Shown here in pieces: positions 6,140 to 21,383 of a stretch of DNA of 26,943 nt. Source of the DNA: a virus; IMG/VR virus record IMGVR_UViG_3300035101_000063; one strand, given 5' to 3'. Position 1 is the first letter of the stretch; every line of letters starts with the position of its first letter. The notes beneath the pieces are model-generated. The model saw only the letters and a program-made list of their open reading frames with translations. It searched no databases and was not told the origin of the DNA. A program made the position numbers and the translations under genes.

Positions 6140-6153
6140 CGAACTCGAGTTCG
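6140..6153. repeat. perfect palindrome CGAACTCGAGTTCG (copy 1 of 3)
   Basis: Exact 14-mer; intergenic, between stop of 6189..6749 and start of 5747..6118. Confidence 0.9.
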
Positions 6154-6188
6154 CCTACTTTCCCTATTTACACAATATGAATCCAAAT

Positions 6189-6749
6189 TCAATTAAACTT
6201 CATATTTTTCTTTTTGCTACTACCATTATTATTAAATGATAAACAATTAACACATATATTATGATCTATAGAATTCAGATGCCCACACTTACAAACCCAT
6301 CCTTTTTCTCTAAACATTGAACTTAAATTTTTGCCAACACTAATAGGGTCATCCAATTTTTGTAAAAGCTTTTCCCTAATAACATTAGCAGCAATCTTAA
6401 AAGAATCAGCATAATGTTTATCACTAACCCATAATCTAATCATTAATACATGTATATTTTTAAAATCATCACCATCTTTAACTGATTCTATATTTCTACT
6501 TGCTATCAATTTCTTTGACCATTCAACATTTTCAATCCATTTTTGTAACAAACATATAAATTTCTCTGTATCATTATTACTTTCAAACAAATGAATCACA
6601 AAATCATATGCCTGAAATTTAATTAATTCTCCATTTTTATTGTCTAAAACCTCTTGTTCTACAGGCTCAATATTATCACCCAATTTTCTCAAACACAAAA
6701 TTGCCTTATCTCGAGGCATACCTATCAATATTTGATCATATTCACCCAT
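6189..6749 (-). CDS. hypothetical protein with C-terminal Zn-ribbon (CKCGHLNSIDHNICVNC)
   Basis: 186-aa minus ORF; CxC...CxxC motif at C-terminus. Confidence 0.45.
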   Translation of the reverse strand: MGEYDQILIGMPRDKAILCLRKLGDNIEPVEQEVLDNKNGELIKFQAYDFVIHLFESNNDTEKFICLLQKWIENVEWSKKLIASRNIESVKDGDDFKNIHVLMIRLWVSDKHYADSFKIAANVIREKLLQKLDDPISVGKNLSSMFREKGWVCKCGHLNSIDHNICVNCLSFNNNGSSKKKNMKFN

Positions 6750-6753
6750 AATA

Positions 6754-7290
6754 TCACCATAAATTCCCTTTCCTTCCCCCTAAATAATATGGGTCAAACA
6801 AAACAGATGGTTCTTTTTTCTTCAAATATTTTTCATCCAATTCAGCATTTTTATACTCATCAATACCATTCTCAATATGTTCCCACACATAACCTATACT
6901 AGGTTCTTTAACACCCAATAAAACCTGACGATAATAAATATTACCTTTTCTATCACGAAAATCACTACATATAAATTGAAAACCATTCCATCGTATATGC
7001 CTTCTTAATGTACTTAAAGCATTTATTTCATATCCTTCCTTCAAAACATAAACACCTAATTTTTCAGGAAATGGACATGGTCTTCTATGCTTATCTATCA
7101 AAAAATCCCAATGAAATATATCACATGTTGGTCGTGTCATCGGCTGAATAGGATTAAATAATAAATATTCATATTCATCCTGTTTCACGTAAGATGATTC
7201 ATTATCCTTACTCACTAACTCCTTTTGAATACCTAAAGCAGAATATAATTTGTCTGTAAAATATTTTATATCACTAAACTCTTCACTCAT
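6754..7290 (-). CDS. hypothetical protein (178 aa)
   Basis: Minus ORF; no family recognised. Confidence 0.45.
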   Translation of the reverse strand: MSEEFSDIKYFTDKLYSALGIQKELVSKDNESSYVKQDEYEYLLFNPIQPMTRPTCDIFHWDFLIDKHRRPCPFPEKLGVYVLKEGYEINALSTLRRHIRWNGFQFICSDFRDRKGNIYYRQVLLGVKEPSIGYVWEHIENGIDEYKNAELDEKYLKKKEPSVLFDPYYLGGRKGNLW

Positions 7291-7374
7291 TATACTTTTC
7301 CTTTCTTTGAAATCTCATCAAATATCAAAACATAACATTTATCTTGCAGCCTTCTTTTTGTTCATTATTATTTA

Positions 7375-8145
7375 TCAACATGGCATCTCTCTTATCCTGG
7401 CCCACATTGGCCATTCATCAACAATATCACCTTTTCTACTTTTAGAACCATTTTTCTTTGCCCAAACAGTCCCCATCTGCTTGAAAAAAACCCTACAACC
7501 AAGAAGTTTAGCATATGACACAATCTTCTCAGCATTATTTTCGTTCATTTCCCTTGCTTTTTGACCAGATTCTCCACCAATAATCACCCATTCAATCCCA
7601 CGAAGATTAAAAAAATCATCCTCTACTGGAGTAACATAAGGACTAAAAATATCACCAATTAATGGTTCAAAAGATACAAATTTATGTTCAACATTCGTAC
7701 CTCTCAAAATATTAATTCTATTAACTGTTTGTCTCAATCCAACAGATACACCGTACCAAACATGGTCAAGAAATCCATTCCTTTCTTGAAAATATCTATT
7801 CATTATCTGAGCTCTTTTTGTCAAAACAATATACTTATGATGATTATATTTATTCATTGCATCATGCATATCATCAATAAAACTAAATGGTACTTCAGAA
7901 TGAAAAGGGTCTCCCATCGAACATATAAAAACCCATCTAGGTCTAGTCCATTCACCTAATTTTTTAAGCACATCTGGATGACAACGAACATCAAATCCAT
8001 CCTCATAATTCTTTTGACCCATTGCTTTCAATCGCATAGCCATTTTTTCAGCATAACAATTATCACATTCTGGACTAATCTTTGAACAACCCGTCACTGG
8101 ATTTAATGTTGCATCAGTCCAATGAATCGCACTCTTATCTCCCAT
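7375..8145 (-). CDS. phage Gp37/Gp68 family protein (DUF5131)
   Basis: N-terminus IHWTDATLNPVTGCSKISPECDNCYAEKMAMRL matches the hallmark WTDATWNP..GC...S.GC.NCYA of the Gp37/Gp68 family. Confidence 0.6.
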   Translation of the reverse strand: MGDKSAIHWTDATLNPVTGCSKISPECDNCYAEKMAMRLKAMGQKNYEDGFDVRCHPDVLKKLGEWTRPRWVFICSMGDPFHSEVPFSFIDDMHDAMNKYNHHKYIVLTKRAQIMNRYFQERNGFLDHVWYGVSVGLRQTVNRINILRGTNVEHKFVSFEPLIGDIFSPYVTPVEDDFFNLRGIEWVIIGGESGQKAREMNENNAEKIVSYAKLLGCRVFFKQMGTVWAKKNGSKSRKGDIVDEWPMWARIREMPC

Positions 8146-8210
8146 AAAACCTTATCCTTTAATCTTTTCAACTATCTATATTTTAATACTCAAAAATCAA
8201 CTTAACTCTA

Positions 8211-8591
8211 TCAACTCTTCCATATACCCATTTCTATTTTTGTCTTTTTGTACTCTCTTTTTCTGTACTCTCTTTTTATTTTACTGTTCTTCTTTACAAC
8301 TTCAACTCTTGTTCTTTCATCACAAATCATAACTTTAATATCTTTACCATATAATTTCTTCAAATCATTAGATACTTTTCCAATTACAGATTCAGACAAA
8401 CGATTTGCTGGTAATCCTTCAGTATCAATATGAACAACCAACATATCACCAGGATTAATACTAACCCTTGTTACTTCTTTTATTTTTATAAAATCATCAC
8501 TTTTAGGCATATGATATGCCATTTCTGCAAATTCTTCACCACCAATATCCATACCTATTTTTTTGAAATCTTCTTCTAATGTAGTTCTCAT
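8211..8591 (-). CDS. hypothetical protein with basic C-terminal tail
   Basis: Minus ORF; ATGA start/stop overlap with upstream gene; AGAAGG SD. Lys/Arg-rich C-terminus. Confidence 0.45.
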   Translation of the reverse strand: MRTTLEEDFKKIGMDIGGEEFAEMAYHMPKSDDFIKIKEVTRVSINPGDMLVVHIDTEGLPANRLSESVIGKVSNDLKKLYGKDIKVMICDERTRVEVVKKNSKIKREYRKREYKKTKIEMGIWKS

Positions 8592-8962
8592 TTTGTCAAC
8601 CTTCTAAATTCCTCAAAAACCCTTGCTGGAATCATTACCCAATCCCTATCGGTGGTACTATCAAATTCCCCTCCCTTTATTTCTATAGCCAATGCAGGTT
8701 CGCAATTATTATCTTCTGCTTCTCTGGAAATTTTCTTTAACCAGTCCCATTTAACAGAAATACTTGCTTTTTTAGTTTGTTTTGCCTCAATCAAGAATTC
8801 TTTATCTCTCACATAAACATCCCTGACATCTCCTTTTGAATGATAATTAGCACCAGACCCACCAACACGCTTACCACCAAATCTTTTAGCTAACCGATTC
8901 TCTTGTTCTGTTGGACTTCCACCACTACTACCAATATATCTCCTAGGTTCATATTTTCCCAT
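8588..8962 (-). CDS. hypothetical protein, candidate small PD-(D/E)XK (VRR-NUC-like) nuclease
   Basis: GDVRD...FLIEAKQTKK resembles the D...ExK core; size about 120 aa is typical of VRR-NUC. Weak call. Confidence 0.3.
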   Translation of the reverse strand: MGKYEPRRYIGSSGGSPTEQENRLAKRFGGKRVGGSGANYHSKGDVRDVYVRDKEFLIEAKQTKKASISVKWDWLKKISREAEDNNCEPALAIEIKGGEFDSTTDRDWVMIPARVFEEFRRLTK

Positions 8963-10202
8963 CTAATATCCTATCCAATAAAATCTTCCTAAGCTTTTCG
9001 AAAGTAGCTGGTTCTTCTATTCTAGCCATAGCATCCTTTTTTCTAGTATATTTTTCATTACCAACATACCATGTCTTATTTGAACCATCTCCAACTTCTC
9101 TATACATATTTAATTTAGAAGCCATACCAATAACATATTTTAATTCATCTATTTTTCCAGCATTATCCCCTGCAATCCACATATAATAACTACCCATTTG
9201 TTTTGCAGGTGCCGTCTTGTTCTTTTCGGTCTTATAACTAACTTTCACTCTAGTACCAATTTCAGACATCAAATCCTTACCAAAAATATCCTTATCTTGT
9301 TCCTCTTTAGTCCATTTTGATGTCCAAAAATTTACAATTGTACTAGCAAAAAACAATTGTCCTTTTCCTGATGTCATCACACGATTATCACCGAATGATG
9401 ACCCACCAATTTTTTCCCTAAATTGATTTATCCAAATATGTGTTGGTGCTCTACCTTTTGACTTCATAACAGAAGTAATACTAGATAACACTTTCCTAAT
9501 AAACTTATTCATCAGTCTCGCTTGCAATCCTTGTTGCCATTCAGCTAAACTATTCTCAATTTCTGCAGATGGTGTCATAGCAGCAATAGAATCAAGCACA
9601 AACAAATCAATTTCTCCAGTTCTTACTAAACTCTCATATATATCACATACCTCCTCTGTTGTTTCAGCTTGAACATACAATAATCTACGAATATCAACAC
9701 CCAATTTTGCAGCCCATACCTTATCAAATGTCCCTTCTGGGTCAAAAAATACAACACTAAATTCTTCATACGAATTTTCTTTATATCTTTCTAATCGTTT
9801 TTTAAAATCAGATTCTTTTTCATCATCATACTTAATAGGCTTAAAAATCCCACGACTAAAACAATCACACTTTCCTTCTGCACTCCAGTATGTATCACCT
9901 TCTGAATCAACAACTTCTGAAACACTCAAATCTTTTACTGGCCTATAACAATTTGCACATATATTTTGAGCAAGTCCTATTACCCGTAAAGCATTTGTTG
10001 TCTTTCCAGATGATTCATCTCCAGCAAAAATAGTTGTTCTACCAACAGCAATACCACCACCTAATGCCCTATCAAAAGATAAACTACCTGTTGACAATCT
10101 AGGTATATTCTTAACAGAACCAGCACTACCAATTGTTCCAGAACCATGTTCTTTGTTGATCAATCTCTTAAGCACTGAAAGGCCAGGACGCTTTGTGTCC
10201 AT
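8949..10202 (-). CDS. recA: RecA-family recombinase with about 68-aa Cys4 insertion
   Basis: IPRLSTGSLSFDRALGGGIAVGRTTIFAGDESSGKTT aligns with E. coli RecA [35 protein letters not shown]. Later FFDPEGTFDKVWAAKLGVDIRRLLYVQAETTEE...LDSIAAMTPSAEIE aligns with RecA [24 protein letters not shown]...VDSVAALTPKAEIE. Between them lies a CANCYRP...GKCDC insertion. Confidence 0.8.
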   Translation of the reverse strand: MDTKRPGLSVLKRLINKEHGSGTIGSAGSVKNIPRLSTGSLSFDRALGGGIAVGRTTIFAGDESSGKTTNALRVIGLAQNICANCYRPVKDLSVSEVVDSEGDTYWSAEGKCDCFSRGIFKPIKYDDEKESDFKKRLERYKENSYEEFSVVFFDPEGTFDKVWAAKLGVDIRRLLYVQAETTEEVCDIYESLVRTGEIDLFVLDSIAAMTPSAEIENSLAEWQQGLQARLMNKFIRKVLSSITSVMKSKGRAPTHIWINQFREKIGGSSFGDNRVMTSGKGQLFFASTIVNFWTSKWTKEEQDKDIFGKDLMSEIGTRVKVSYKTEKNKTAPAKQMGSYYMWIAGDNAGKIDELKYVIGMASKLNMYREVGDGSNKTWYVGNEKYTRKKDAMARIEEPATFEKLRKILLDRILDGKI

Positions 10203-10203
10203 T

Positions 10204-10794
10204 TCATATCCCTTTGTCGCTTTCTAATGATTTAATTCTAGAAAATTGGTCTGCAATATCAGAAGCCATATCATCAGATATAACCTCAAATATTTCTACA
10301 ATATTATCATTATCAGAAATTGGTATCTCTTCCATTGTATCTACCTGATGAGATTCATATTCTTTAGCTCCCTTTAACGTCAAACCATATGAAATAAATA
10401 TATTCCTATCCATACAGGCATTCAAAATACCAATTGTATTTGCTTCAAATTGTGGCTTATATTCTTTTTCTTCAAGTCCATATTCCTCCCTTTTAAGCAT
10501 TTCCAAAATAAAATCTTTAACAGCTCTTTTAACAATAGAATAATCATCACTATTATCAAATTTCACTTTAACAGAAAGCTTAATCCTACCAAACTCATAT
10601 CTTCTAAGCGCAATTGTTCTTCCTGCACTAAATCCATAAGAAAACAAATCAGTGCGATTAGAATGAATACCTATCTTACCGCTTCCGTTATGAGAACCTG
10701 AATATCCTTTTGGTTCACCTTTGTATCTTACTAATTTAGACTTACAAACATTACCTTCATTTTCAATTTTCATCTTTTCCTCCTCATTCAACAA
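10204..10794 (-). CDS. hypothetical protein (196 aa)
   Basis: Minus ORF; TGAAATG coupling to RecA gene. Confidence 0.45.
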   Translation of the reverse strand: MLNEEEKMKIENEGNVCKSKLVRYKGEPKGYSGSHNGSGKIGIHSNRTDLFSYGFSAGRTIALRRYEFGRIKLSVKVKFDNSDDYSIVKRAVKDFILEMLKREEYGLEEKEYKPQFEANTIGILNACMDRNIFISYGLTLKGAKEYESHQVDTMEEIPISDNDNIVEIFEVISDDMASDIADQFSRIKSLESDKGI

Positions 10795-10827: not shown

Positions 10828-11340
10828 TCAACAAATATTTACACCTAACTTAATCCATTCTTTAACTATTTTATTATAAATTTCTGTATCAAGGAATAGA
10901 ATAATACCTCTTGATTGCAATACCATTTTAACAATTAAAATCATACCAATACTATACAATCTTTTTCCTCTACCAGTTTTAAATGGTGTATCAGGTATAA
11001 CACCCGATTTAATCCAATTTTTTACTGTAGATACAGGACGACCAATATTTTCAGCTAAATCATTAATTGAAAGACCAACACACTTTTTGCCATTAACAAT
11101 AATATAAATAGGACCATTATTACGTTTTCTTGGTTTAGATTTTGGTATTTTTCCTTCAGCTCTTAATTTATCCATCTCAGCTTTTTTTTTGGCCCTATTT
11201 AATCTTGCTAATTCCTTTGCACGCTCTCTCACCTTGGAATCATTTTGATATCTTTCTTTCTTTCGTTCTGAAATTTTTTCTCTGTTTGTTTCATAATACA
11301 TACGTTGATATTCTTTTCGACTATCGGAACTACTACTCAT
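10828..11340 (-). CDS. HTH DNA-binding protein (MerR/excisionase-like helix-turn-helix near C-terminus)
   Basis: LSINDLAENIGRPVSTVKNWIKSGVIP is a typical HTH_17/MerR-type motif. Track ORF extends to 11454 and overlaps the helicase gene by 80 nt. An internal ATG at 11340 (MSSSSDSRKEY), preceded by a GGAAGGAA SD-like motif, is the more likely start. Confidence 0.45.
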   Translation of the reverse strand: MSSSSDSRKEYQRMYYETNREKISERKKERYQNDSKVRERAKELARLNRAKKKAEMDKLRAEGKIPKSKPRKRNNGPIYIIVNGKKCVGLSINDLAENIGRPVSTVKNWIKSGVIPDTPFKTGRGKRLYSIGMILIVKMVLQSRGIILFLDTEIYNKIVKEWIKLGVNIC

Positions 11341-11374: not shown

Positions 11375-12889
11375 TCAAGACACCTCTGTTCCAATTTTCC
11401 TATAGAACTTCTGTCTGCGCCTCCATTTCGGTAAAAGCTGGGGAATATTCTCATCTACGACATCAACTATAATAGGTTTAGGTTTTTCTTTACAATTACC
11501 AACTCTCCATGGACAATAATGTTCGCATTTTTCCTTGTCTTGATAACACCACCTTCTAGCGCGACCAACTATTTGTTCTATATCTCCCATAGGCATCGAA
11601 AGAACCAACACATCAAGCGCTTCAACATCAAATCCTTCCTCGATGCTTTGCTTAGTTGCAAAAATTACATTAGCACGTTCTGCTTTATCAAAATCAGCTT
11701 CTGTTCTTTTGACCATTTTAGGGTCACCTTTTTTATGCCTACTATTTGATTCTTCCCATACTTCTCCAGAAAACCATTCACCAGTACAAAAATCAATAGT
11801 AGGTTCAAATGGCAAATCAAGGTCAAATAAAGAATTCATCAACATGTCACTCATAAGTTTCAAATGATAAAGTCTTTCACTAACAACTATTATTTTACGA
11901 CCATTTTGAACAGCCAATACTAATTGATCAACAATATCTTTTGCTCTAAACTGATCCTTTCCAAGCTGAGTTAAAATTTGAGCACTATTCAAATTATCAA
12001 CTGATACATAATAATTACCCCTTCTTATCGGTTTCAAACATGAATAAGTCTTTAACACTCTCAAACCAGGCACTTGCGCCTTAGTTTTAGCAGAATATGT
12101 AACATCACTTATATGATTAAAAAATACGTCCTGTGCACCATCTTTTCGTCTAGGAGTTGCTGTTAAACCAACTCTCCATGCAGCATTAAATCTAGGTAAA
12201 ACAAATGACCATGAAGAAGCAGCTATTCTATGACATTCATCACTAATAACAATTCCGAATTCCGATTTATATATCCTTTCTGGATACTTATGACTATCTT
12301 TATCCCTCACTAAAGATTGAAGCATTGCAATAACAAAATCACAATCCTCAAATTCACATTTATTCTGACGAATAATTCCAACTTTAGCATCTGGCATAAA
12401 TTTTTTTATTCTATTCTTCCATTGTTTTAAAAAAAACTCTTTATGAACAATAATTAATGTCTTACGGCCAACACGTCTAGCAAACTCCAATGAACACGCT
12501 GTTTTTCCAAAAGCGCATCCTGCTTTCAACAAAAAACCATCCCACTTTTTACCCTCCATTCTAGCAAGAAATGTTCTTATTACAGCTTCCTGTTCAATGA
12601 AATTTCCAGTTGCCTGATATCTAGTAGTAAAGGCTGACATTTTACTACCATATGATATTTTTAATATTTCATCATGTTCCTTTGTAACATTTTTCCTATA
12701 CCATGCTCTAGGAACACCAATGAAATCCTCCTTTTCATCATACATATAAATAGGCTTTGGATCTGCCTTTGTAGCAATATCTGTCGTCTTCTTAGGATAT
12801 ATCGTTAATAATTCTTTTATATTTAAAATCTGTTGAGCAGACAAATCATCAATTGGCAACCAAACATTTCCACTTACAACAACTTTCAT
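11375..12889 (-). CDS. SF2 DExH-box DNA helicase (UvsW/type III res-like)
   Basis: Walker A AGCAFGKTACS, DECH box (VISDECHRIAA), arginine finger QIVGRARR; length 504 aa comparable to T4 UvsW. C-terminal Cys cluster. Confidence 0.8.
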   Translation of the reverse strand: MKVVVSGNVWLPIDDLSAQQILNIKELLTIYPKKTTDIATKADPKPIYMYDEKEDFIGVPRAWYRKNVTKEHDEILKISYGSKMSAFTTRYQATGNFIEQEAVIRTFLARMEGKKWDGFLLKAGCAFGKTACSLEFARRVGRKTLIIVHKEFFLKQWKNRIKKFMPDAKVGIIRQNKCEFEDCDFVIAMLQSLVRDKDSHKYPERIYKSEFGIVISDECHRIAASSWSFVLPRFNAAWRVGLTATPRRKDGAQDVFFNHISDVTYSAKTKAQVPGLRVLKTYSCLKPIRRGNYYVSVDNLNSAQILTQLGKDQFRAKDIVDQLVLAVQNGRKIIVVSERLYHLKLMSDMLMNSLFDLDLPFEPTIDFCTGEWFSGEVWEESNSRHKKGDPKMVKRTEADFDKAERANVIFATKQSIEEGFDVEALDVLVLSMPMGDIEQIVGRARRWCYQDKEKCEHYCPWRVGNCKEKPKPIIVDVVDENIPQLLPKWRRRQKFYRKIGTEVS

Positions 12890-12898: not shown

Positions 12899-13909
12899 TC
12901 AAAACGGTATATCATCATCATTGGGACCATTAGGTCCTACATATTGACCACTATCACCAAAACCAACTCCATACGTTTTAGGAGGCTCTCTCATGCCAGT
13001 TTGCATATTACTACGTACCATCCCTTGTCTTTGTCCATCATGAAACGATTTATTACCTCTATTATCTCCCCATCCTACAAGCTCATCAAGTTTTGCCTGA
13101 TAATCATCAACATCAATATCAAATACCCCTTTTTTCGAATCTGGATCTGTATATACTGGTATATCCAATTTTAAATATTCTGGATCTGCACCCCATCTAA
13201 CAAGATATTCCTCAAAGTGTTCAGGTGAAATTCTATCTACAAAAGACCAATCATTACCTACAATAGGTTCTTTTTTTCCAGTTCTAGTTGTATCCCATAT
13301 TGTACCAGTCAAATCCTCAATACCATGTTGTTGCCTTATTTCTGCTAACCTTCTCTGTAATGTCTTCATAACACCTGGATTATCAACAGATCCTCTTTTA
13401 GCACCTAGTAAAACTCTCTGAAAAGACCTCTCAAATCGGTCACCATTATCATTCTCCCAATATTCATGATGCAATCTTACCCTATTTCCTCTCCGTTCAA
13501 CCTGTCCCATGTCAATAACTGGTAAAAATCCAATAAAATATGCAAAATCCTTTCCACCCTTTTTAGAACAAACAGGACATGGTATCTTTGAGATACCATT
13601 TTTTTCTAAACAAATTGCTGTAAATGCTTCAAAAATATTATAAGCATTTTTAAATCTCCATAAACTATGTTCATAAATATTAAAAGGAGAACCATCCAAA
13701 AAAAGCACTCGTTTAGTAGCAGATGAACCAGGATTTACTAAATTTGGTTTTTTATCCGTACCCTTTGGTGTTGGAATTGAAAATCTAAATCTATAGAGTC
13801 TTTCATTTTCAGTAATCTTATTCCCACTATCACTACTGTCATAATCGCTATCATAACTATCATATTCATCTGGGTCTCCCCATCCTTTACTATAAGTTCC
13901 AATGCCCAT
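12899..13909 (-). CDS. putative ssDNA-binding protein (gp32-like Zn site) with SSB-type C-terminal tip DDDIPF
   Basis: H-x19-C-x10-C-x2-C arrangement (YEH...AIC...PCPVC) resembles the T4 gp32 Zn site. Long Gly/Gln-rich disordered linker ends ...GPNGPNDDDIPF, like bacterial SSB. Track start 13966 lacks SD and abuts the palindrome. The ATG at 13909 has GGAGAAAAAATG, so it is preferred. Confidence 0.4.
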   Translation of the reverse strand: MGIGTYSKGWGDPDEYDSYDSDYDSSDSGNKITENERLYRFRFSIPTPKGTDKKPNLVNPGSSATKRVLFLDGSPFNIYEHSLWRFKNAYNIFEAFTAICLEKNGISKIPCPVCSKKGGKDFAYFIGFLPVIDMGQVERRGNRVRLHHEYWENDNGDRFERSFQRVLLGAKRGSVDNPGVMKTLQRRLAEIRQQHGIEDLTGTIWDTTRTGKKEPIVGNDWSFVDRISPEHFEEYLVRWGADPEYLKLDIPVYTDPDSKKGVFDIDVDDYQAKLDELVGWGDNRGNKSFHDGQRQGMVRSNMQTGMREPPKTYGVGFGDSGQYVGPNGPNDDDIPF

Positions 13910-13969
13910 TTTTTCTCCATTTCGTGATCCTATATCACCATCTTTTTCGTGCTCTATTAGCACCATTTA

Positions 13970-13985
13970 GCGAACTCGAGTTCGC
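13970..13985. repeat. perfect palindrome GCGAACTCGAGTTCGC (copy 2 of 3)
   Basis: Exact; intergenic between DnaB-like gene stop and SSB-like gene start. Confidence 0.9.
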
Positions 13986-14139
13986 CAATATTTTTCACGT
14001 CATATTAACTACTATGCCAAATAGACCAATTATAAATTATATCTTTAATAAAGAAATCAACTATTAACAAAATCATCATCAAAACTCTCTACAACAACCT
14101 TCCAAAATTGTAAATAACACCACCTTTAAAGTTTGTCAA

Positions 14140-15486
14140 CTAAAATGGTATCCCCTCTTCCTCTTCATTATTTTCCTCTTCTTCAATTTCACCAAACTCC
14201 ATTCTATCAAAATCCCAATGAACCTTTATCTCTGGTTTCTTATATTGACCTCTACGAAGTTTTAAATTTTTAAATTTCATTACTTTATCATCTTTATCAT
14301 CTTTATTTTGTATTAATGCATAAACAGCATGAACATCCTGCCCAATCTCATCAGCTAATGCAATTGTTCCAAGCCTTGCCCCTCCCCCCTTCTTCTCCGA
14401 AAGCTCAGCAGTCCTATTCTGCTGTGCAAAACCTATCGCAGCATAGCCAAGCTCCTTGCAACTTCGCTTCATCCATCCAAGAGCCTCCACGGCTCTTTCA
14501 CGACGATCCCCTTTAATATGTAGGTCATAAATCGAATCAACAGCAACAAGCTCAGCATTACAAGCACGAATTGCAGCATCTATACCACGCGGACTCAAAT
14601 CATCATCAGAATCCATAATCCACAATCCATCCTTACCAGCCTCACCATTAATTGTATTTACAAATTTTTGCTCCATAACAGTTGGAAGTTGACCAGTAAT
14701 AACACTATGGTAACTAACATCAGAATGGATAGTAAAAAATCTCTCAGCTATCTCATCTTTACTCATTTCTGGTGAAACAACCAAGACACGTTTATCTTTC
14801 ATCCAGGCATGTCTACCACATATAACACAGACGAACGTTTTCCCAACTGAAGGTCGAGCAACAAACATAGTAACAGTTTTGGGCCATGCACCTGCCGTCA
14901 TATCATCTATTGTTTTCCACGGAAATGGAATACCCCTATATCCATCAGCAGCCTTTCTATAATTCTCAAGAACCTTTCCTCCAATATCCAATAAATTATG
15001 TGGCATTCTATGCCTAGAAAGGTCCTGTGCTGCATTCAACAGGGATTCAAGACTAGGAGATAAAGAATCTATACCTTCTGCTTTAAATCCATCATAAACA
15101 ACTTTCTGAGCATTATAAATTACACGACGTATAGCACTAGCTTCCCTAACTATATTTGCATAATGACCCACATTTGATGGTGCAGATACAAAATCTGTCA
15201 ATTGCGATAATGCAATTGCACCACCTATATTTTTTAATTGACCTTGCTCTCTTAATCTATTTCCTAATGTGACATGATCAACAGGTATCCCAGCCTCGAA
15301 CAAAGAATACATGCCATAAAAAATTATTCTATTGGAATTTATATAAAAATCTTCTTCATTTACATTAGCAAAAACTTCACCCCAACAATCATTATTCAAA
15401 AGAACAGATCCAAGAACAGCATTTTCAGCTTCTTCATTGTATGGTGGTATATTAGGTCCACCTTTAGAATCGCAAATATTGCTCAT
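14140..15486 (-). CDS. dnaB: DnaB-like replicative DNA helicase with acidic ...EEEEGIPF C-terminal tip
   Basis: N-terminal domain (PPYNEEAENAVLGSVLLNNDCWGEV...NRIIFYGM...IPVDHVTLGNRL...GGAIALSQL), Walker A ARPSVGKTFVCV, RecA-like C-terminal domain. Appended EEEENNEEEEGIPF tail. Confidence 0.85.
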   Translation of the reverse strand: MSNICDSKGGPNIPPYNEEAENAVLGSVLLNNDCWGEVFANVNEEDFYINSNRIIFYGMYSLFEAGIPVDHVTLGNRLREQGQLKNIGGAIALSQLTDFVSAPSNVGHYANIVREASAIRRVIYNAQKVVYDGFKAEGIDSLSPSLESLLNAAQDLSRHRMPHNLLDIGGKVLENYRKAADGYRGIPFPWKTIDDMTAGAWPKTVTMFVARPSVGKTFVCVICGRHAWMKDKRVLVVSPEMSKDEIAERFFTIHSDVSYHSVITGQLPTVMEQKFVNTINGEAGKDGLWIMDSDDDLSPRGIDAAIRACNAELVAVDSIYDLHIKGDRRERAVEALGWMKRSCKELGYAAIGFAQQNRTAELSEKKGGGARLGTIALADEIGQDVHAVYALIQNKDDKDDKVMKFKNLKLRRGQYKKPEIKVHWDFDRMEFGEIEEEENNEEEEGIPF

Positions 15487-16329: not shown

Positions 16330-16903
16330 CTACCATATGTTTTTTCTTTTTGGGCTTTTTTCTACCAGGAACATTACCCAATTTAGCATCAACAAATATC
16401 CTATCTCTACCAACCCATAAAAATCTAACATTGGGTGCACCAGAAAGTCTTCCGTTACTATTATCAATCATAGCTTGCCAATTATCACAAAACCACTCAA
16501 CAGTTTTCTCTACAATCTCTGGCCCATAATGTTTCAATAACTTGTTGGCACATGTTATTTCTTCTATGCCCCACCAAGTCTGTTTTTTCTCACTAACATC
16601 ATCACCTTTATCTACCACAAGCCAATCAGAATTATTTTTTCTTATTCCTTTCACAAACCAACGCTGAACACAAAACCAATTTATCACGTCCTTTTTAGTT
16701 TGTCTATTATCTCCAGCAGATTTGTCAACTGTTGATTGAGTATAACAATCTTTAAAAGAAGGTGTTTCAGGTTTTAACTCTTGCTTTATTTTATTTTTTT
16801 CTTTACGTTTTTCTCTAGCTTTTTCTTCAAGCCTTAAAGTATTTTCTTTGATATCTTCAATTTTTTTTGAAAACTTTTTTCTCCAATTATTTCCCACTAT
16901 CAT
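16283..16903 (-). CDS. hypothetical basic protein (206 aa), possible replication initiation accessory
   Basis: Minus ORF overlapping loader gene; Lys-rich N-terminal coiled-coil-like segment. Function unknown. Confidence 0.4.
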   Translation of the reverse strand: MIVGNNWRKKFSKKIEDIKENTLRLEEKAREKRKEKNKIKQELKPETPSFKDCYTQSTVDKSAGDNRQTKKDVINWFCVQRWFVKGIRKNNSDWLVVDKGDDVSEKKQTWWGIEEITCANKLLKHYGPEIVEKTVEWFCDNWQAMIDNSNGRLSGAPNVRFLWVGRDRIFVDAKLGNVPGRKKPKKKKHMVGEYDPELDGSTKIGW

Positions 16904-17153
16904 ATTCTCTACCTTCCAACAAATTCACAGAAGATGCCTGTAAATCCTTCAGTGTTCCATTTATTTCAACCAATAATTCAACCCAATCCTCCTTATAATT
17001 GATACCACACAAACGTTTGCAGTCATTAGAAAAAGCAACCGCTTCAAAATCATTCATTTCAACAATACGGTCTCTCCAGGATGTTACTTTTCTAATCCAT
17101 CCGATACCATATTTTGTTTCGACTTTATCGCCGATGAAGTATTTTCGAGCCAT
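16887..17153 (-). CDS. hypothetical protein (88 aa)
   Basis: Minus ORF with AAGGGA SD at proper spacing; start lies 70 nt inside the upstream gene. Confidence 0.4.
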   Translation of the reverse strand: MARKYFIGDKVETKYGIGWIRKVTSWRDRIVEMNDFEAVAFSNDCKRLCGINYKEDWVELLVEINGTLKDLQASSVNLLEGREYDSGK

Positions 17154-17596
17154 TCTAATCCCTTAATTTTCCTAGCATCATCTACTAGAATCTCTCTATG
17201 GTCATTCATCCAAATTGGAGCACGAAAAATAACATCATTCCAAGACCAACCATCAAGCACTAACAACTCAGCAGCAATCACATTATATAATATATTATTT
17301 TGTTCAGATATTAATTTAGCACTATTTAATATATCTCTTAATCTATCATAAAATAATACAAAATGGTCTTCATTAGGTCTATTTAATATAATACTATTTC
17401 CATCATCTAATAAGATTTCAATAGAATTCACACCAAATGCTTCTGATAATTCAAAAACAACTTCACCCATTCCAAATAAAATTAAATCTTCTAAATCAAA
17501 TTTATCATTAAATTCATCATTAAATTCATCATTAAATTCATCATTAAATTCATCATTAACATGTTTTATAGGAAATAATAAATTATTTTCTTTCAT
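17084..17596 (-). CDS. hypothetical protein with N-terminal (NDEF)x4-5 tandem repeat
   Basis: Minus ORF; repeat encoded by 12-nt tandem array. Confidence 0.45.
   Translation of the reverse strand: MKENNLLFPIKHVNDEFNDEFNDEFNDEFNDKFDLEDLILFGMGEVVFELSEAFGVNSIEILLDDGNSIILNRPNEDHFVLFYDRLRDILNSAKLISEQNNILYNVIAAELLVLDGWSWNDVIFRAPIWMNDHREILVDDARKIKGLEWLENTSSAIKSKQNMVSDGLEK
17498..17557. repeat. 12-nt tandem repeat AAATTCATCATT x5 (first copy imperfect) encoding DEFN repeats
   Basis: Direct reading. Confidence 0.85.
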
Positions 17597-17654
17597 CTCA
17601 ACTATTCATCCAGCATCATACTGATATCAACATATATAAAAAAAATAAAATTTG

Positions 17655-17981
17655 TCAACCCATACGTTTTAGATAATTTCCTTTTTCATATTCTCTACGC
17701 TTATCTTCATCCGTAACATAATCCATAATAATTTGTATTTTATTTTTACCTTGAATTGCAGACAAAAATGAACGAATAGAATTAACTAAATGAGCATTCC
17801 TACCAATAACCTGACCAACATCTTTAGGATGTGTTCTTAAAGCCACAAGAGCACTATAACCATTACTCTCTATATCAACCTGAACATCCTCTGGATGATT
17901 TACAAAATGACGAACAAGCATTACTACTTCACGAATAGCATCTATTACCAATGGATCAATTTTACCTAAATTTTTACCCAT
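17655..17981 (-). CDS. KH-domain RNA-binding protein, KhpA/YlqC-like (KH_4)
   Basis: VNHPEDVQVDIESNGYSALVALRTHPKDVGQVIGRNAHLVNSIRSFL matches the KhpA pattern (hPEDV.V...l.l.v.p.DmGkVIGk.Gr...aiR.ll). Track start at 18014 is TTG and overlaps the upstream gene. ATG at 17981 (MGKNLGK) preferred. C-terminal extension of about 30 aa. Confidence 0.55.
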   Translation of the reverse strand: MGKNLGKIDPLVIDAIREVVMLVRHFVNHPEDVQVDIESNGYSALVALRTHPKDVGQVIGRNAHLVNSIRSFLSAIQGKNKIQIIMDYVTDEDKRREYEKGNYLKRMG

Positions 17982-17982
17982 A

Positions 17983-18297
17983 TCAAATACCCAAATCAGC
18001 CTTTCTGGTCGCAATTTCCGTATTACGACGTTCTACCAATATCTTAGCATCCTCCTCATTTATTCCTTCACGATGTTTCCAATTTGTCCTCATTGCCCGC
18101 TCTCTAGAAGCATGAAGTTCTTTAAATTGACGACTATATCTTCTCACCATACTTCTAATCTCATCCTGTGTTTTTATCGGCAAATATCCATTGTTTTGTA
18201 AAAAACATCTTGCTTCATTAATAAATTTACGTTTATCTATAGGTAACTTAATACTCACAAAATCATTCAATATTTCACATATACTCATCTGTTCCAT
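17983..18297 (-). CDS. hypothetical protein (104 aa)
   Basis: Minus ORF with GAGGTG SD and predicted promoter upstream. Confidence 0.45.
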   Translation of the reverse strand: MEQMSICEILNDFVSIKLPIDKRKFINEARCFLQNNGYLPIKTQDEIRSMVRRYSRQFKELHASRERAMRTNWKHREGINEEDAKILVERRNTEIATRKADLGI

Positions 18298-18325
18298 GCT
18301 TGCATCACCTCAGCATCTATATTAT

Positions 18326-18355
18326 TTTATAATAGATATTATTAATATATGTCAA
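18326..18355 (-). promoter_or_regulatory. sigma70-like promoter TTGACA-18-TATAAA on minus strand
   Basis: rc of 18350-18355 is TTGACA; rc of 18326-18331 is TATAAA. Sits in a 129-nt AT-rich intergenic region about 30 nt upstream of the 17983..18297 start. Confidence 0.4.
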
Positions 18356-18426
18356 AATATTTTTTTCTAACATATCATAACAAACTCGATTTCACCATAA
18401 ACATCTATCTCAAAAATATAAAATCA

Positions 18427-19014
18427 TCAAATTGGTGTTGTAGAAAGTATAAAAGAAATCAATATATTATCAGAATCTAACGGAATTTTAAAAACTTCAT
18501 TAGCAACTTTCACATTAACAATATATTCACCACAATCATCAACATCAACAAAACCAACCAATCCAATCATATCCAAAAATGGTTCATTTTCACTATCAAA
18601 TCTAAATTTTGTTCCGGTTAAAAATTTTAAACTTGAAATATTAGAATACCAATCAACTATCTCTTCTAAATTATCACCATATCCAGCAACAACCATATTA
18701 ACCATATGTCTCATAACAGATATTATCATATCATTGAAAAATTCAATACCACAAAACTCAACAAAATCATTATCTATTTTTACTATACCTGCACTTCTCA
18801 TCAAAGAGGGATAGTTAACTTTCCCAATAGGTCGTAACGATTCTATATTTCCATTCACATCATATAAAACAAAACTTCCATCAACAACCTTAGTGCGAAC
18901 CTGCCATAATAATTCAATTCCATCATCAACAATTTCAGCTTTTACCCACATCCCGTCTGGTGTTTTTGCATAATATTCCAAGACTCTTTCTTTGTTTCTC
19001 ATTAATTTCATCAT
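18427..19014 (-). CDS. hypothetical protein (195 aa)
   Basis: Minus ORF; no family recognised. Confidence 0.45.
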   Translation of the reverse strand: MMKLMRNKERVLEYYAKTPDGMWVKAEIVDDGIELLWQVRTKVVDGSFVLYDVNGNIESLRPIGKVNYPSLMRSAGIVKIDNDFVEFCGIEFFNDMIISVMRHMVNMVVAGYGDNLEEIVDWYSNISSLKFLTGTKFRFDSENEPFLDMIGLVGFVDVDDCGEYIVNVKVANEVFKIPLDSDNILISFILSTTPI

Positions 19015-19294
19015 ATTCTTTTTCGCTCAAAACATCTTCACGCCATACATATCTAACTATATCATCTAATTTTATAGCAACAGCTACTTTTCTTAAATGT
19101 TCATGCTTAAAATAATCATCCTCCATCCTATCAAGATAAAACTGTATTTTTTTTGTATATTTTATTTTTTTTGCCTTGGTATATTTCCTATAAATTTTAA
19201 TATTTAACCCTGGAGGATTATTAAATAACATATCCCTATTCAGCCACACATCAAAAGATGCCTTTATAACACGTGGGTCTCTTTTACTTGCCAT
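18935..19294 (-). CDS. hypothetical basic protein (119 aa)
   Basis: Minus ORF; overlaps downstream gene by about 80 nt. Confidence 0.4.
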   Translation of the reverse strand: MASKRDPRVIKASFDVWLNRDMLFNNPPGLNIKIYRKYTKAKKIKYTKKIQFYLDRMEDDYFKHEHLRKVAVAIKLDDIVRYVWREDVLSEKEYDEINEKQRKSLGILCKNTRRDVGKS

Positions 19295-19295
19295 A

Positions 19296-20267
19296 TTATT
19301 TTGGAATAATTATCTTTGGTTTTTCAGAAGCTACTTTCATAGCTTTAATATTGTCATCTGTTTTATCAGTAACTAATTTTGTAACTTCTTTTACACGTCT
19401 TGCTCTCTCATCAGCCTTATTACCAACAGCTTCTTTCATTGCTTCAGCAAGCGCTATATCTTCTTCAATTCCAACAGGATCACCATCATCACAATCCATT
19501 GGAATATCTGCATTGAAGATATCATCCTCTATTGTATCAGTTTCATTAAATAATTCTGGTACTTTGTTACCTTGCTGAATTTCAACAACCCTTTCACCTT
19601 TAGCTACTACATTTGCAAGCCTAGCCTTAGCTTTATCCGTCCATCCAACAGTTGGTGATTCCATAGGAATATTACCAATCAATTCTATTCCATAATTAGA
19701 TGTATCAGGAATATCTTTATCACCATATATACTTCTACATTCCTCTTCTGATTCAAAAACCTCTATTATTCCATCTTCAATATGACGAACAACAAATAAT
19801 TCAAGGTCTTCTTTAGTTATAACATTATCTCTACCACCAGCCATTTCAGACATAGCTTCTTCTATATCATTAGGAATAATCCCTATCGGAAAAGTAGCTC
19901 CTTGAAGCATGGCCCACAAATGCGTTTGACCAAAATTCTGTTCTCTCCAATCAGCCGGAAACAACTCAATAGCTTCAGATTGTTCACCACAAAGCTCTCT
20001 TTTAATCCTCTGCTTTAAACCATAAAAATAATCATCAGACCCTTTTAACCCTTTTGCCCATTGAATCATCAAATGAGCAATCTTCTGAGGAGCACCGTCT
20101 GGTGTAGTAAAAGCAGGAGATTCAACTTCCTTAATAAAAATTGTAACATGTCCATTTTGAAAGGCAGCCACAACATTAGATTCCTGTGCATCTGGTGGAA
20201 CTTGGAAAGGAATCAATGGTTTCCAAGGTTTATATTTTAAATTTCTATCAGATCCTTTTTTTTTCAT
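19296..20267 (-). CDS. hypothetical acidic protein (323 aa)
   Basis: Long minus ORF with coding-like composition, acidic C-terminal third. No family recognised. Confidence 0.5.
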   Translation of the reverse strand: MKKKGSDRNLKYKPWKPLIPFQVPPDAQESNVVAAFQNGHVTIFIKEVESPAFTTPDGAPQKIAHLMIQWAKGLKGSDDYFYGLKQRIKRELCGEQSEAIELFPADWREQNFGQTHLWAMLQGATFPIGIIPNDIEEAMSEMAGGRDNVITKEDLELFVVRHIEDGIIEVFESEEECRSIYGDKDIPDTSNYGIELIGNIPMESPTVGWTDKAKARLANVVAKGERVVEIQQGNKVPELFNETDTIEDDIFNADIPMDCDDGDPVGIEEDIALAEAMKEAVGNKADERARRVKEVTKLVTDKTDDNIKAMKVASEKPKIIIPK

Positions 20268-20572
20268 CTAAACCTCGCTTTCACCTCAATGGTAATATTT
20301 TTTCTTGGTATACCTCTCTTCAATACATGAACAATTGAAAATCCTTCATTCATGTAACACTCTGAAACTTCATCCGCACAATCAGACTGAGTTTCAAATC
20401 CCATGGTAAAATATTTACCATAATTATCTTTCATGATTAAAGCCCAAGGCTTTTTAAGATTTCGTAATGCTTCAATTTTAGAATTACATTCTTCAACATC
20501 CTCAACAATTTTTACAATATCTTCTATTGGAATCTTAACAATAAAAGTATCTTTTTCAACATTATCATTCAT
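20264..20572 (-). CDS. hypothetical protein (102 aa)
   Basis: Minus ORF; ATGA overlap with downstream gene. Confidence 0.45.
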   Translation of the reverse strand: MNDNVEKDTFIVKIPIEDIVKIVEDVEECNSKIEALRNLKKPWALIMKDNYGKYFTMGFETQSDCADEVSECYMNEGFSIVHVLKRGIPRKNITIEVKARFR

Positions 20573-20747
20573 CTTCTTGAAACCTTTCTTCTAATTCTGT
20601 TAAACGAGCAATCATATGCCTTTCATTATCATTACAAATAGCAATACGTTTAAACATAATACCCAACTTTCTTTTCATATAAAAATATGAACTTATGCTT
20701 CCAATGAAAAAAAATACTACTGCAACAAAAAACATACTCAATAACAT
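20565..20747 (-). CDS. small single-pass membrane protein (60 aa)
   Basis: N-terminal hydrophobic helix MLLSMFFVAVVFFFIGSISSYFYM followed by a charged cytoplasmic tail. Holin-like topology but no adjacent lysin. Confidence 0.4.
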   Translation of the reverse strand: MLLSMFFVAVVFFFIGSISSYFYMKRKLGIMFKRIAICNDNERHMIARLTELEERFQEDE

Positions 20748-20748
20748 A

Positions 20749-21102
20749 TCAAAAATCCACTATACCTAAATCATCAACTGTCAAGGATTCCTTGTCAATT
20801 GCTAAATCAACTTCTTCCTTCGACATTCCTTTTTTTATCAATATATTTTTAGCTGCTCTATATTTTTTATCCAAAGAAAAAACTAATTCTTGAATGGCAT
20901 CATGTCTAAATCGGTACCACTCTGCACGAAATTCATTTTCGATTGAAACACGAGCATCATCATATTTAAAACCAAAAAAATTAATCACATCTTTTGGCAT
21001 TTCTTTAAAACGCTCACGAACATATTCTTTTTGGTCCATACACAATGGATTCAATTTTATTTCATTAGTCATCTTCAAATTCATCAACAAACATTCTAGC
21101 AA
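20749..21102 (-). CDS. hypothetical protein (117 aa)
   Basis: Minus ORF; no family recognised. Confidence 0.4.
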   Translation of the reverse strand: MLECLLMNLKMTNEIKLNPLCMDQKEYVRERFKEMPKDVINFFGFKYDDARVSIENEFRAEWYRFRHDAIQELVFSLDKKYRAAKNILIKKGMSKEEVDLAIDKESLTVDDLGIVDF

Positions 21103-21355
21103 TAACAGCCTGATTGTTTAAAGCAGAACTCTCAACTGACATAGCTGTTTGATAAGCTATTCCAATCAAATCCTGAAACATTTTTGCCGATTGCATTCTT
21201 AAAACAATTTTTTCATATAAAGACTGTCTAGAATCACTTATTTCATTATCAATTGTACGTCTTTCCAAATAAGCATTGCTAGACAAATGCTCAAAAGCAT
21301 TAATTGCAGCCTGTGATTTCCAAACAATTTTTACATTTTCAACTTTTTCATCCAT
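21065..21355 (-). CDS. hypothetical protein (about 96 aa)
   Basis: Track start at 21361 is TTG; first ATG at 21355 has AAGG 6 nt upstream. Palindrome copy 3 lies 14 nt upstream of that ATG. Confidence 0.4.
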   Translation of the reverse strand: MDEKVENVKIVWKSQAAINAFEHLSSNAYLERRTIDNEISDSRQSLYEKIVLRMQSAKMFQDLIGIAYQTAMSVESSALNNQAVIARMFVDEFEDD

Positions 21356-21369
21356 TTTCAACCTTGCAA

Positions 21370-21383
21370 CGAACTCGAGTTCG
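21370..21383. repeat. perfect palindrome CGAACTCGAGTTCG (copy 3 of 3)
   Basis: Exact; intergenic between lysin-like gene stop (21387) and next start (21355). Confidence 0.9.

Follow-up and report, generated by a model that had tools for sequence, protein, structure and literature searches.

The window analysed here, 26,943 nucleotides of the IMG/VR record IMGVR_UViG_3300035101_000063, covers the replication and recombination module of a large AT-rich phage. Along its whole length, the 14-mer CGAACTCGAGTTCG occurs in three exact copies at 6140-6153, 13971-13984 and 21370-21383, as an earlier note on this DNA had described, and no further copies with up to two mismatches were found in the window. 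Chance does not account for them, because the mean in dinucleotide shuffles of the window was 0.02 and none of 100 shuffles reached three matches. Every copy is intergenic, and the flanking ORFs are all on the minus strand; the sites themselves were assigned no strand. Site S1 (6139..6154), the 16-bp dyad aCGAACTCGAGTTCGc as read on the plus strand, lies 35 nt past the stop codon of ORF 6189-6749, and the ATG of ORF 5747-6118 follows 21 nt further on. The product of the latter ORF starts with MFACTR and has a weak ASCH match. Site S2 (13970..13985) is the perfect 16-bp palindrome GCGAACTCGAGTTCGC and is located in the 173-nt gap between the DnaB gene (14140-15486) and ORF 12899-13966, where it heads a gene run of 12899-13966, a helicase, a MerR-like HTH protein, 10204-10794, UvsX and RusA. 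Site S3 (21369..21384), again aCGAACTCGAGTTCGc, is found 3 nt past the stop codon of ORF 21387-22037 and 14 nt ahead of the likely ATG of the 98-aa ORF 21065-21361.

The three copies are members of a genome-wide array of a 16-bp two-fold-symmetric dyad at gene junctions. Within 462 kb of lineage loci, we found 76 perfect-arm matches (67 unique) against 0.21 expected from composition, spanning at least 12 syntenic phage lineages with GC contents of 32-66%; the motif is thus present in related genomes, where the earlier note had proposed to look for it. A purine at position -1 and a pyrimidine at position +1 accompany all 67 unique sites, so the unit is 16 bp, RCGAAC-N4-GTTCGY, and not 14 bp, and this R/Y pair takes the place of the flank C(C/A)(T/A)A read previously from the window. 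Outside position +/-1, the information content is at background level. The arms are invariant over these lineages and the centre drifts only via CpG transitions, with the exception of lineage L124, in which the arms read CG[A/C]AC, half of the half-sites are CGCAC, and four of six sites are mismatched between their arms. The central tetramer is TCGA, TTGA, TTAA, CCAG or ACGT depending on the lineage, positions 6/9 being symmetric and lineage-specific (T..A, C..G or A..T), and asymmetric centres are found both ways round (TTGA 7 and TCAA 9; CCAG 4 and CTGG 2).

We extended the window via contigs with identical proteins (L117, L120 and L122), placing their sites at virtual window positions. These flanking contigs contribute five further copies, giving eight sites in about 46 kb at 33589, 30174, 27000, 21370, 13971, 6140, -58 and -7013, of which site 33589 is a one-mismatch variant and site 27000 is a variant in L120 and perfect in L122. 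The successive gaps of 3.4, 3.2, 5.6, 7.4, 7.8, 6.2 and 7.0 kb dispel the impression of regular spacing given by the window, as they range from 3.2 to 7.8 kb once the flanking contigs are added. One contig of the same lineage, 38.3 kb long, carries nine unique sites. The sites number about one per 4-7 kb and occur in the early as well as the late modules. We estimate 25-40 sites per genome of 130-176 kb. Most sites have a stop codon on one side and the next ribosome-binding site on the other, the usual layout being STOP-(0-16 nt)-dyad-(8-23 nt including the RBS)-ATG. When the complete IMG/VR collection was scanned with the R/Y flanks included, all multi-copy contigs belonged to the AT-rich, GC-skewed lineage; with the bare 14-mer, the matches listed were mostly single chance occurrences in GC-rich contigs. 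A megablast of 10 kb gave no match among GenBank phages, and tblastn with DnaB gave nothing above 29% identity, indicating that the phage has no cultured relative. A literature search for the 14-mer returned shRNA loop constructs only.

The site is kept at orthologous junctions despite deep divergence. The S1 junction is also occupied in L134, L170, L172 and L135, where the dyad forms an island of identity in a diverged spacer; the S2 junction, from DnaB to the next gene, is also occupied in L134, L123/L125, L170, L173, L174 and L131; and S3 is kept at L134:2230 and L120:15060. Such islands connect phages of 32-51% GC, and orthologous sites persist between lineages with 33-55% protein identity. 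We take the identity islands and the use of the same junctions in several lineages as signs of selection on the dyad. This persistence is difficult to reconcile with a selfish or mobile miniature palindrome (REP/MITE-like) spreading through intergenic DNA, which could explain why the sites are uniform in each genome and intergenic while synteny between lineages is partial, as well as a 28-nt identity between the non-orthologous junctions of window S3 and L041:7384-7411. Six of the ten shared upstream bases in the latter case, however, are the final Asp codon and stop of the upstream gene. Conservation ends at 16 bp, so the dyad is not part of a larger mobile repeat, a possibility that had been raised before; neither terminal repeats nor target duplications accompany it, and no RAYT/IS200-like gene or other cognate transposase was found in the Pfam calls over about 130 kb of context. 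We therefore regard mobility as highly improbable. The least probable of the readings that we weighed is a recognition site for a phage DNA enzyme, such as a restriction/modification enzyme, a nickase, or a packaging or replication-initiation nuclease. TCGA/CTCGAG does occur inside the dyad, two DNA methyltransferases are encoded in the window (23445-24593 and 24610-25356), and TCGA and GATC are under-represented, but the centre differs by lineage while the arms are constant, a specificity of 16 bp is atypical for R-M systems, and the window contains 34 other TCGA sites.

Another reading is that the dyad acts as a hairpin in RNA or single-stranded DNA. The stop-to-RBS layout would suit termination or attenuation between cistrons, stabilisation of a 3' end, processing, or translational control by an operator just upstream of the RBS. 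Copies with extended stems or T-runs are found at gene-block ends and convergent junctions: L117:11088 is a 24-nt perfect palindrome (-14.5 kcal/mol), and L029:11430 and L081:1238 are further examples. In L174, CTTTT(T) comes directly after each of the four sites, and T-runs also occur in L081. At the window copies, the core stem of 5-6 bp has a folding energy of only -3.3 kcal/mol, or -5.8 to -11 kcal/mol with flanks, and the 3' sequences (uaguug, cuaaau and uugcaa) contain no U-run on the coding strand, in agreement with the previous view that these are not intrinsic terminators, which combine a stable GC-rich hairpin with a U-tract. The sole terminator-like call, in S2, is on the non-coding strand, and no Rfam family matched in the window. 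RNase III processing, suggested earlier, would call for about 20 bp or more of (imperfect) double-stranded RNA; the stem is far too short for this, and the flank complementarity stays within the marginal expectation. Selection on structure alone predicts compensatory changes, yet the sequence is wholly invariant. The flank pairs do not covary, 6 of 67 sites having A..C, and pairing in the flanks does not exceed what marginal base frequencies predict. These observations, together with the non-covarying arm mismatches of L124 and the weak hairpin, speak against a cruciform or hairpin, and we consider a hairpin function improbable. The GC-rich palindromes of L001 (66% GC) were also tried as covarying hairpins and rejected, because they represent one motif with non-covarying A/C arms. 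Since the R/Y flanks lack excess pairing and the centres, and thus the loops, occur in both orientations, we favour a dyad that would be recognised in double-stranded form by a dimeric protein of two-fold symmetry. The first option of the earlier note, a site bound by a dimeric regulator of phage or host origin, is the best-supported reading.

The arms and spacing of the dyad are identical to the published Gram-positive LexA/SOS (Cheo) box, a point that the earlier note had missed. The LexA consensus of B. subtilis is CGAAC(N4)GTTCG (PMC4551915, PMC9700832); the three window copies and the 67 unique sites of relatives agree with it at all ten specified positions. Firmicutes and Actinobacteria share the core GAAC-N4-GTTC, of which Chloroflexi have variants (PMC4951493). 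Because of this identity of arms and spacing with the box of Firmicutes, Actinobacteria and Chloroflexi, we tentatively take binding by host LexA as the best reading. A reader making its contacts in the arms, with little demand on the spacer, would be expected to leave constant arms and a drifting centre, and tolerance of spacer and flanks has been reported for a LexA. Temperate phages with LexA boxes have been described, namely GIL01 (dinBox1), pBtic235 and SPbeta. The metagenomic bins of relatives are labelled Dehalococcoidales for L135 and 'uncultured archaeon' for L134; we counted the former in favour of LexA. The same genome as the array also contains a perfect canonical parS-like site, judged against the parS consensus, and this fits a phage that exploits host DNA-binding proteins.

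If LexA is the reader, its dimers would sit at gene junctions and close to promoters all through the early and late modules. At sites abutting a -35 element or inside a 5' leader, LexA would act by ordinary operator binding, whereas sites within operons could serve as stoperator-like elongation roadblocks and/or as a high-affinity LexA sink. RecA-stimulated LexA cleavage would then release the entire phage genome at once. A generic sigma-70 scan was uninformative in this AT-rich DNA (120 matches against 91 in shuffles), and the promoter search was then based on the lineage's own -35 signature TTGACAAAC, which recurs in intergenic regions of all relatives. A sigma-70-like promoter candidate, TTGACAaactttaaaggtggtgtTATTTA, was recognised from its sequence on the minus strand at 14111..14139, about 125 nt upstream of S2, and would put S2 in a 5' leader. 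TTGACW lies 4-46 nt downstream of 9 of 51 sites, compared with a background of about 5% per 80 nt, a point that we count for LexA, and TTGACWA lies within 250 nt upstream of 6 of the 51. The remaining approximately 36 of 51 sites have no recognisable sigma-70 promoter nearby, a point that we count against it.

Several other features also argue against LexA. Real LexA regulons are degenerate; the LexA boxes of SPbeta have 3-5 mismatches, and the LexA operators of C. difficile vary at positions 1 and 14 and in their flanks. Here the arms are perfect, the window contains no variants with 1-2 mismatches, and regulon-like degeneracy with a free spacer and flanks is not seen: the R/Y flank accompanies all 67 sites, and positions 6/9 are symmetric and lineage-specific although spacer and flanks have been reported as tolerant for a LexA. 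The actinobacterial LexA box tCGAAC...GNNCGa has flanks opposite to the R/Y found here. We know of no LexA preference for a strict R/Y flank. The CGCAC half-sites of L124 break the GAAC core. In their uniformity, in their strict flanks and in lying mostly away from promoters, the sites have no parallel among known LexA regulons. A tblastn search of 440 kb of lineage DNA for a phage-borne LexA homologue gave nothing below E=0.6. A weak LexA-like stretch in the 10204-10794 family was dropped after a PDB profile search gave no meaningful match.

A clade-specific MerR/RacA-like protein would be an equally natural reader, and this is a further argument against LexA. The 170-aa product of the minus-strand ORF 10828..11340 has two long basic helices at its N terminus and a winged helix-turn-helix of the MerR type. 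It matches Pfam HTH_17/MerR_1 at scores below the curated cut-offs and the PDB profile of MerR 4ua1 (E=8e-4), and its AF2 model, built on an alignment of database homologues, has a pLDDT of 91. Its top fold matches are the DNA complex of the RacA DNA-binding domain (5i44) and DNA complexes of the MerR family. A homologue exists in every syntenic relative, and 43 database homologues were found, some with precomputed MerR Pfam matches, so the clade as a whole has kept the HTH product singled out by the earlier note, a winged-helix protein of the MerR type. Pfam and PHROG scans of the 30 window ORFs gave no other DNA-binding candidate. We infer from these data that the product may read the dyad. 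The main rival to host LexA, quite conceivable but doubtful, is accordingly the same double-stranded array read by this phage protein at clade-specific operators or 'ram'-like architectural sites. These would serve to control transcription globally, to compact or anchor the genome, or in replication/recombination, and their identity with the LexA box would be coincidence or deliberate mimicry. One conserved phage protein could account for the R/Y flank, the perfect arms, the symmetric positions 6/9 and the CG[A/C]AC drift of L124, and S2 heads its gene run in at least seven lineages, resembling autoregulation. The recognition helix and wing are most divergent in L129 and L131, both without CGAAC arrays, and L129 carries three copies of GTGCAR-N5-YTGCAC in equivalent contexts. 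In nine of ten lineages, positions 6/9 go with the helix motif (RSV versus RSK), a correlation confounded with phylogeny. De novo repeats in the distant relatives L126-L133 were noisy, and only the GTGCA-type dyads of L129 and L126 stand out. On the other hand, we roughly estimate at below 1% the chance of an exact match in arms and spacing to a famous host operator. The window protein deviates at two near-invariant positions of the recognition helix with the arms unchanged, L126, despite a typical helix, lacks CGAAC sites over 11 kb in which its relatives carry 2-3, and the structural matches are weak (E ~1e-2) and confined to the winged-helix part.

Among known systems, the dyad shares with the LexA operator its arms, 4-bp spacing, symmetry and tolerant centre, and some dyads abut candidate -35 elements or would fall in leaders. 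It differs in being perfect and uniform with a strict R/Y flank at about one per 4-7 kb, mostly inside operons from stop to RBS and not over promoters, and in the CG[A/C]AC arms of one lineage. RacA of Bacillus subtilis, a MerR-like winged-helix protein with a coiled coil, binds about 25 dispersed 14-bp GC-rich inverted repeats, the ram sites TGACGCCGGCGTCA. The phage resembles this system in having a GC-rich palindrome of 14-16 bp dispersed in AT-rich DNA and in encoding a long-helix MerR-type winged-helix protein that matches the RacA-DNA complex best in fold, but the site sequence is another one, the domain order is reversed (phage helices N-terminal), and the structural similarity is weak; that the phage array anchors a chromosome would be pure conjecture. 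KorB OB operators of IncP-1 plasmids and C1 operators of phage P1 occur in a dozen or more copies over replicons of 60-90 kb, some of them distant from promoters. They are alike in that one scattered operator gives one protein global control, but a ParB/KorB- or C1-type protein was not found here, and P1 operators are asymmetric. Cluster A mycobacteriophages carry more than 20 stoperators (L5 gp71-type) in short intergenic spaces and promoters, for which a stop to elongation has been proposed (PMC9283540). Both arrays repeat a single short site many times over the genome in narrow intergenic gaps. A stoperator is an asymmetric 13-mer that a monomer binds and that points along transcription, whereas the dyad is palindromic and orientation-free, and the immunity repressor of those phages has no identified counterpart here. 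With intrinsic terminators and REP elements, the dyad shares a GC-rich inverted repeat right after stops and, in some relatives, a T-run, but its stem is too short, its sequence is invariant, and it has neither a U-tract in the window nor a larger repeat.

The array probably lets a single DNA-binding protein control or organise the genome as a whole. A bolder and rather unlikely proposal is that this uncultivated clade of 130-176 kb phages is studded with dozens of maximal-affinity LexA boxes. Host LexA might then be a genome-wide silencer with SOS-triggered release (a 'LexA stoperator'), perhaps with plasmid-like carriage given the parS-like site; or phage DNA might soak up LexA and induce SOS without DNA damage; or a RacA/MerR-like protein with LexA-box specificity might compete with LexA on phage and host DNA. 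The hosts of the clade are taken to span 32-66% GC. GIL01, CTX and SPbeta have one or two promoter LexA boxes, not an array of perfect operators. Should LexA boxes be what these sites are, we would know of no earlier large phage that ties practically all of its transcription units, the early ones as well as the late, to the SOS repressor of its host. A simple testable model would follow for the way in which uncultivated jumbo-class phages detect DNA damage in their hosts, or provoke SOS by LexA titration. If the reader is instead the phage MerR/RacA-like protein, the array would represent a new clade-wide cis/trans system with a site as conserved as parS. Under either reading, the 16-mer is a sharp sequence marker for the clade and a ready handle for DAP-seq or EMSA.

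In the window, exact matches to the 14-mer core CGAACTCGAGTTCG start at 6140, 13971 and 21370, whereas shuffled windows contain 0.02 matches on average, confirming the claim of the earlier note that the three copies are non-random. No further match with up to two mismatches was found in the window. Each copy forms the core of a 16-bp dyad, RCGAAC-N4-GTTCGY (S1, 6139-6154; S2, 13970-13985; S3, 21369-21384), and the second copy is a perfect 16-mer palindrome. All three lie between two minus-strand genes, as described before, and no U-run follows them on the coding strand, on which ground an intrinsic terminator was rejected. The regular spacing of about 7.5 kb did not hold up when the window was extended. 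Neighbouring contigs encoding identical window proteins add ~9 kb per side, with three more exact copies and two one-mismatch variants, and the gaps between sites then range from 3.2 to 7.8 kb.

GC content is 32% in the window, and the minus strand carries essentially all long ORFs and all real genes. The GC skew is close to -0.4 and stays between -0.3 and -0.55 in each 1-kb bin, an extreme strand asymmetry. The coding strand is G-rich with about 10-12% C, and syntenic relatives at 50-66% GC keep the positive coding-strand skew. The window encodes a phage replication/recombination module consisting of DnaB (14140-15486, minus), an SF2 helicase (11375-12889, minus), a UvsX/RecA-like recombinase (8949-10202, minus), a DnaC-like loader, Holliday-junction resolvases (RusA-like and others), a Cas4-like nuclease, two DNA methyltransferases, an RNA-ligase-like protein and a small HTH protein. 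Two phrog_17202 paralogues with no assigned function (3149-4066 and 25356-26057) are kept in relatives, and one of them adjoins the methyltransferase pair. Replication genes are interrupted in relatives: gaps of 1-1.3 kb divide the matches to DnaB and the SF2 helicase in the related contigs L003/L127, L135 and L131/L132, and the helicase at L173:7217-10000 carries Intein_splicing and LAGLIDADG_3 domains.

An IMG/VR scan with RCGAACTCGAGTTCGY, run to completion, returned 63 stretches, among which the multi-copy contigs were all AT-rich and GC-skewed like the window, and the single matches fell on unrelated GC-rich contigs. We collected 35 unique sites from the AT-rich lineage, one 38.3-kb contig of which carries nine dyads. 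The usual layout is a stop codon, 0-16 nt, the dyad, 8-23 nt including the RBS, and an ATG. As exceptions, a few dyads overlap the last codons of a gene, one conserved dyad is intragenic, and several stand at the ends of gene blocks. The sites are not limited to replication genes, dyads being found also upstream of a tail-assembly chaperone, a tape-measure protein, a baseplate wedge protein and the terminase region.

Several individual junctions deserve description. The dyad at L147:8015 lies at the stop of a 329-codon frame (ending NSSS) and also within a 1169-codon frame that is open in another phase; this overlap may reflect ambiguous annotation or a recoding site. At 7 of the 35 AT-rich-lineage sites, the preceding gene closes with Asp-stop (GAT-TAA/TAG) versus 1 of 44 window ORF ends, an excess that is marginal because some of the seven are orthologues. 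Window positions 21367-21394 are identical over 28 nt to L041:7384-7411 (GGATTAATTG, dyad and TTG), at non-orthologous junctions. A TnpB/Cas12f1-like gene (L174:2281-3648) is inserted directly after a dyad, and a ParB_N-N6_N4 methyltransferase fusion (L174:12475-13740) comes after the post-UvsX dyad. Seven clustered tRNA genes (L120:2635-3889; 4 Ser, 2 Leu, 1 Phe) lie upstream of the window, and the variant dyad TGAACTCGAGTTCG (L120:2842) stands directly after the first two of them (tRNA-Ser ends at 2817). A small gene preceded by a GGAGG RBS comes next, and this genome also codes for a CCA-adding-enzyme-like protein (L117:13735-15072).

Searches guided by protein sequence brought up syntenic relatives that are 130-176 kb long and have 34-66% GC. 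The search of related genomes proposed in the earlier note revealed arrays with the same arms and differing centres in at least 12 lineages. The centre is TCGA in the window, L134 and L170; TTGA, TCAA or TTAA in L127, L135, L169 and L171-L173; CCAG or CTGG in L123, L125 and L130; and ACGT or ATGT in L124 and L174. Unique perfect-arm sites number 67 (76 matches) in 462 kb, where base composition predicts 0.21 matches. Just outside the arms, position -1 is a purine and position +1 a pyrimidine at 67/67 sites; positions 6 and 9, flanking the central dinucleotide, are always complementary, and the dinucleotide itself is always pyrimidine-purine. Transitions within the central CpG (CG to TG/CA to TA) link the centre variants, and asymmetric centres occur in both orientations. 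The flanks past +/-1 carry no information, for which reason a MITE was rejected, and their complementarity is not above that predicted from marginal base frequencies.

Orthologous junctions retain the dyad despite deep divergence. The junction upstream of the 'MFACTR' gene is occupied in the window (S1), L134, L170, L172 and L135, and that between DnaB and the next gene in the window (S2), L134, L123, L170, L173, L174 and L131; other subsets of lineages have a dyad before or after UvsX and upstream of the homologue of 17983-18297. The spacer in the S1 alignment has diverged around the dyad, which stands out as an island of identity. The distant syntenic relatives L129 and L126 lack CGAAC arrays and have other recurrent dyads, GTGCAR-N5-YTGCAC three times in L129 (4252, 6588 and 16870, adjoining promoters) and GTGCAA-CCAA-TTGCAC twice in L126 (2477 and about 9120), which may be functional counterparts with different specificity.

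Is the dyad recognized as duplex DNA or as RNA? Extended stems or T-runs at the ends of transcription units (L117:11088, L029:11430, L081:1238 and all four L174 sites) would suit a structure-selected RNA hairpin, but we consider this improbable. The predicted core hairpin is weak, at -3.3 kcal/mol (-5.8 to -11 with flanks), the sequence is invariant without compensatory change, and the loop is found in both orientations. Moreover, the arms of the 66%-GC lineage L124, CG(A/C)AC...GT(T/G)CG, mismatch each other in 4/6 sites, the flank rule is symmetric (R...Y) but permits the non-pairing A..C, and Rfam gave no match in the window. An RNase III site was also rejected, given the weak hairpin and flank complementarity at background. 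Judged from sequence, the features fit independent recognition of two 5'-RCGAACN half-sites on duplex DNA by a symmetric dimer.

As the reader of the dyads we tentatively prefer host LexA, with rather more doubt than confidence. The arms and spacing are exactly those of the published B. subtilis LexA operator, CGAAC(N4)GTTCG (PMC4551915, PMC9700832). Firmicutes and Actinobacteria share this motif, variants of it occur in Chloroflexi, and mutation in spacer and flanks has been reported as tolerated for a LexA (PMC4951493); such breadth and tolerance would explain why the arms are fixed and the centre drifts across phages that differ widely in base composition and, presumably, in host. Temperate phages known to have LexA boxes are GIL01, pBtic235 (PMC4551915, PMC9700832) and SPbeta. 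One relative, L135 (CAYRYW010000002.1, 'uncultured Dehalococcoidales bacterium'), was binned with a Dehalococcoidales MAG. The 'uncultured archaeon' label of L134 (CAYUTF010000026.1) is probably a binning artefact because of the bacterial-type promoters, SD sites, DnaB/DnaC and sigma factor. Against LexA, true regulons (SPbeta, C. difficile) are degenerate, the R/Y flank is no known LexA preference and is the reverse of the actinobacterial t...a, positions 6 and 9 vary in concert within lineages, and the GAAC core is broken in half of the L124 half-sites. A -35 element abuts only 9/51 sites, with a nearby promoter upstream of 6/51. Because the dyads, despite their LexA-box sequence, do not show the degeneracy of a regulon, we do not class them as proven LexA boxes.

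Another possible reader, near parity with LexA though somewhat doubtful, is the phage's own 170-aa protein (10828-11340). Profile searches and the predicted structure gave a MerR-type winged helix after two long basic helices, and the best structural matches of the prediction were the RacA DNA-binding domain on DNA and MerR-family-DNA complexes. The protein is found in every syntenic relative, S2 heads the gene run encoding it, and L129 and L131, with the most divergent helix and wing, are without CGAAC arrays, L129 having a different dyad in equivalent contexts. However, L126 has a typical helix and yet no CGAAC site in 11 kb, and the window's own atypical helix is paired with standard arms. 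LexA remains our preference because perfect boxes would be occupied in vivo anyway if the hosts have a Gram-positive-type LexA.

Dimers bound at the junctions could occlude adjacent promoters, as exemplified by TTGACA beginning 3-4 nt past the dyad at L123:8452 and two L174 sites, or could block elongating RNA polymerase within operons; alternatively, bound dyads might merely sequester the protein. If LexA is the reader, its RecA-stimulated cleavage would lift repression from the early and the late modules at the same time, or replicating phage DNA might titrate LexA and induce the SOS response. Stoperators have been proposed to block elongation inside operons of mycobacteriophage Cluster A (PMC9283540); the dyad array would behave alike, but the dyad is symmetric and orientation-free. 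RacA/ram and KorB/OB arrays follow a similar logic, but the dyad array shares neither their sequence nor a demonstrated protein. We found no description of such a dyad array in the searchable literature.

The window also contains TGTTTCACGTGAAACA (2746-2761, within the minus-strand ORF 2530-3027), part of an 18-nt perfect palindrome, which matches the canonical parS (ParB/Spo0J) site of bacteria. L117/L118 share it, and L134, a relative of 87% identity, has it with one mismatch; it was not seen in the other lineages examined. This 16-mer hints that the phage segregates like a plasmid or recruits host ParB/SMC, and its perfect match suggests that the phage exploits host DNA-binding proteins. 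A clade-wide intergenic promoter signature, (A-rich)-GTTGACAAAC-N16-18-TAnnnT, is present in the window (14134-14139, 3136-3141 and 17653-17658) and in L001, L002, L003, L117 and L120. It is conserved across relatives of 32% to 66% GC, and a gene for a sigma-70 r3/r4 protein is present in the phage genome as well (L117:13013-13648). Finally, an ORF-free, strongly purine-rich region of ~900 nt (window 26470-26943, continuing to about L120:9040-9990) lies upstream of a KTSC-domain gene (26098-26430). This region, which could serve as an origin or encode a non-coding RNA, shows loose repeats of GAAAAGGAA/GGAATAGA-type units and holds one dyad, variant in L120:9431 and perfect in L122:5034.
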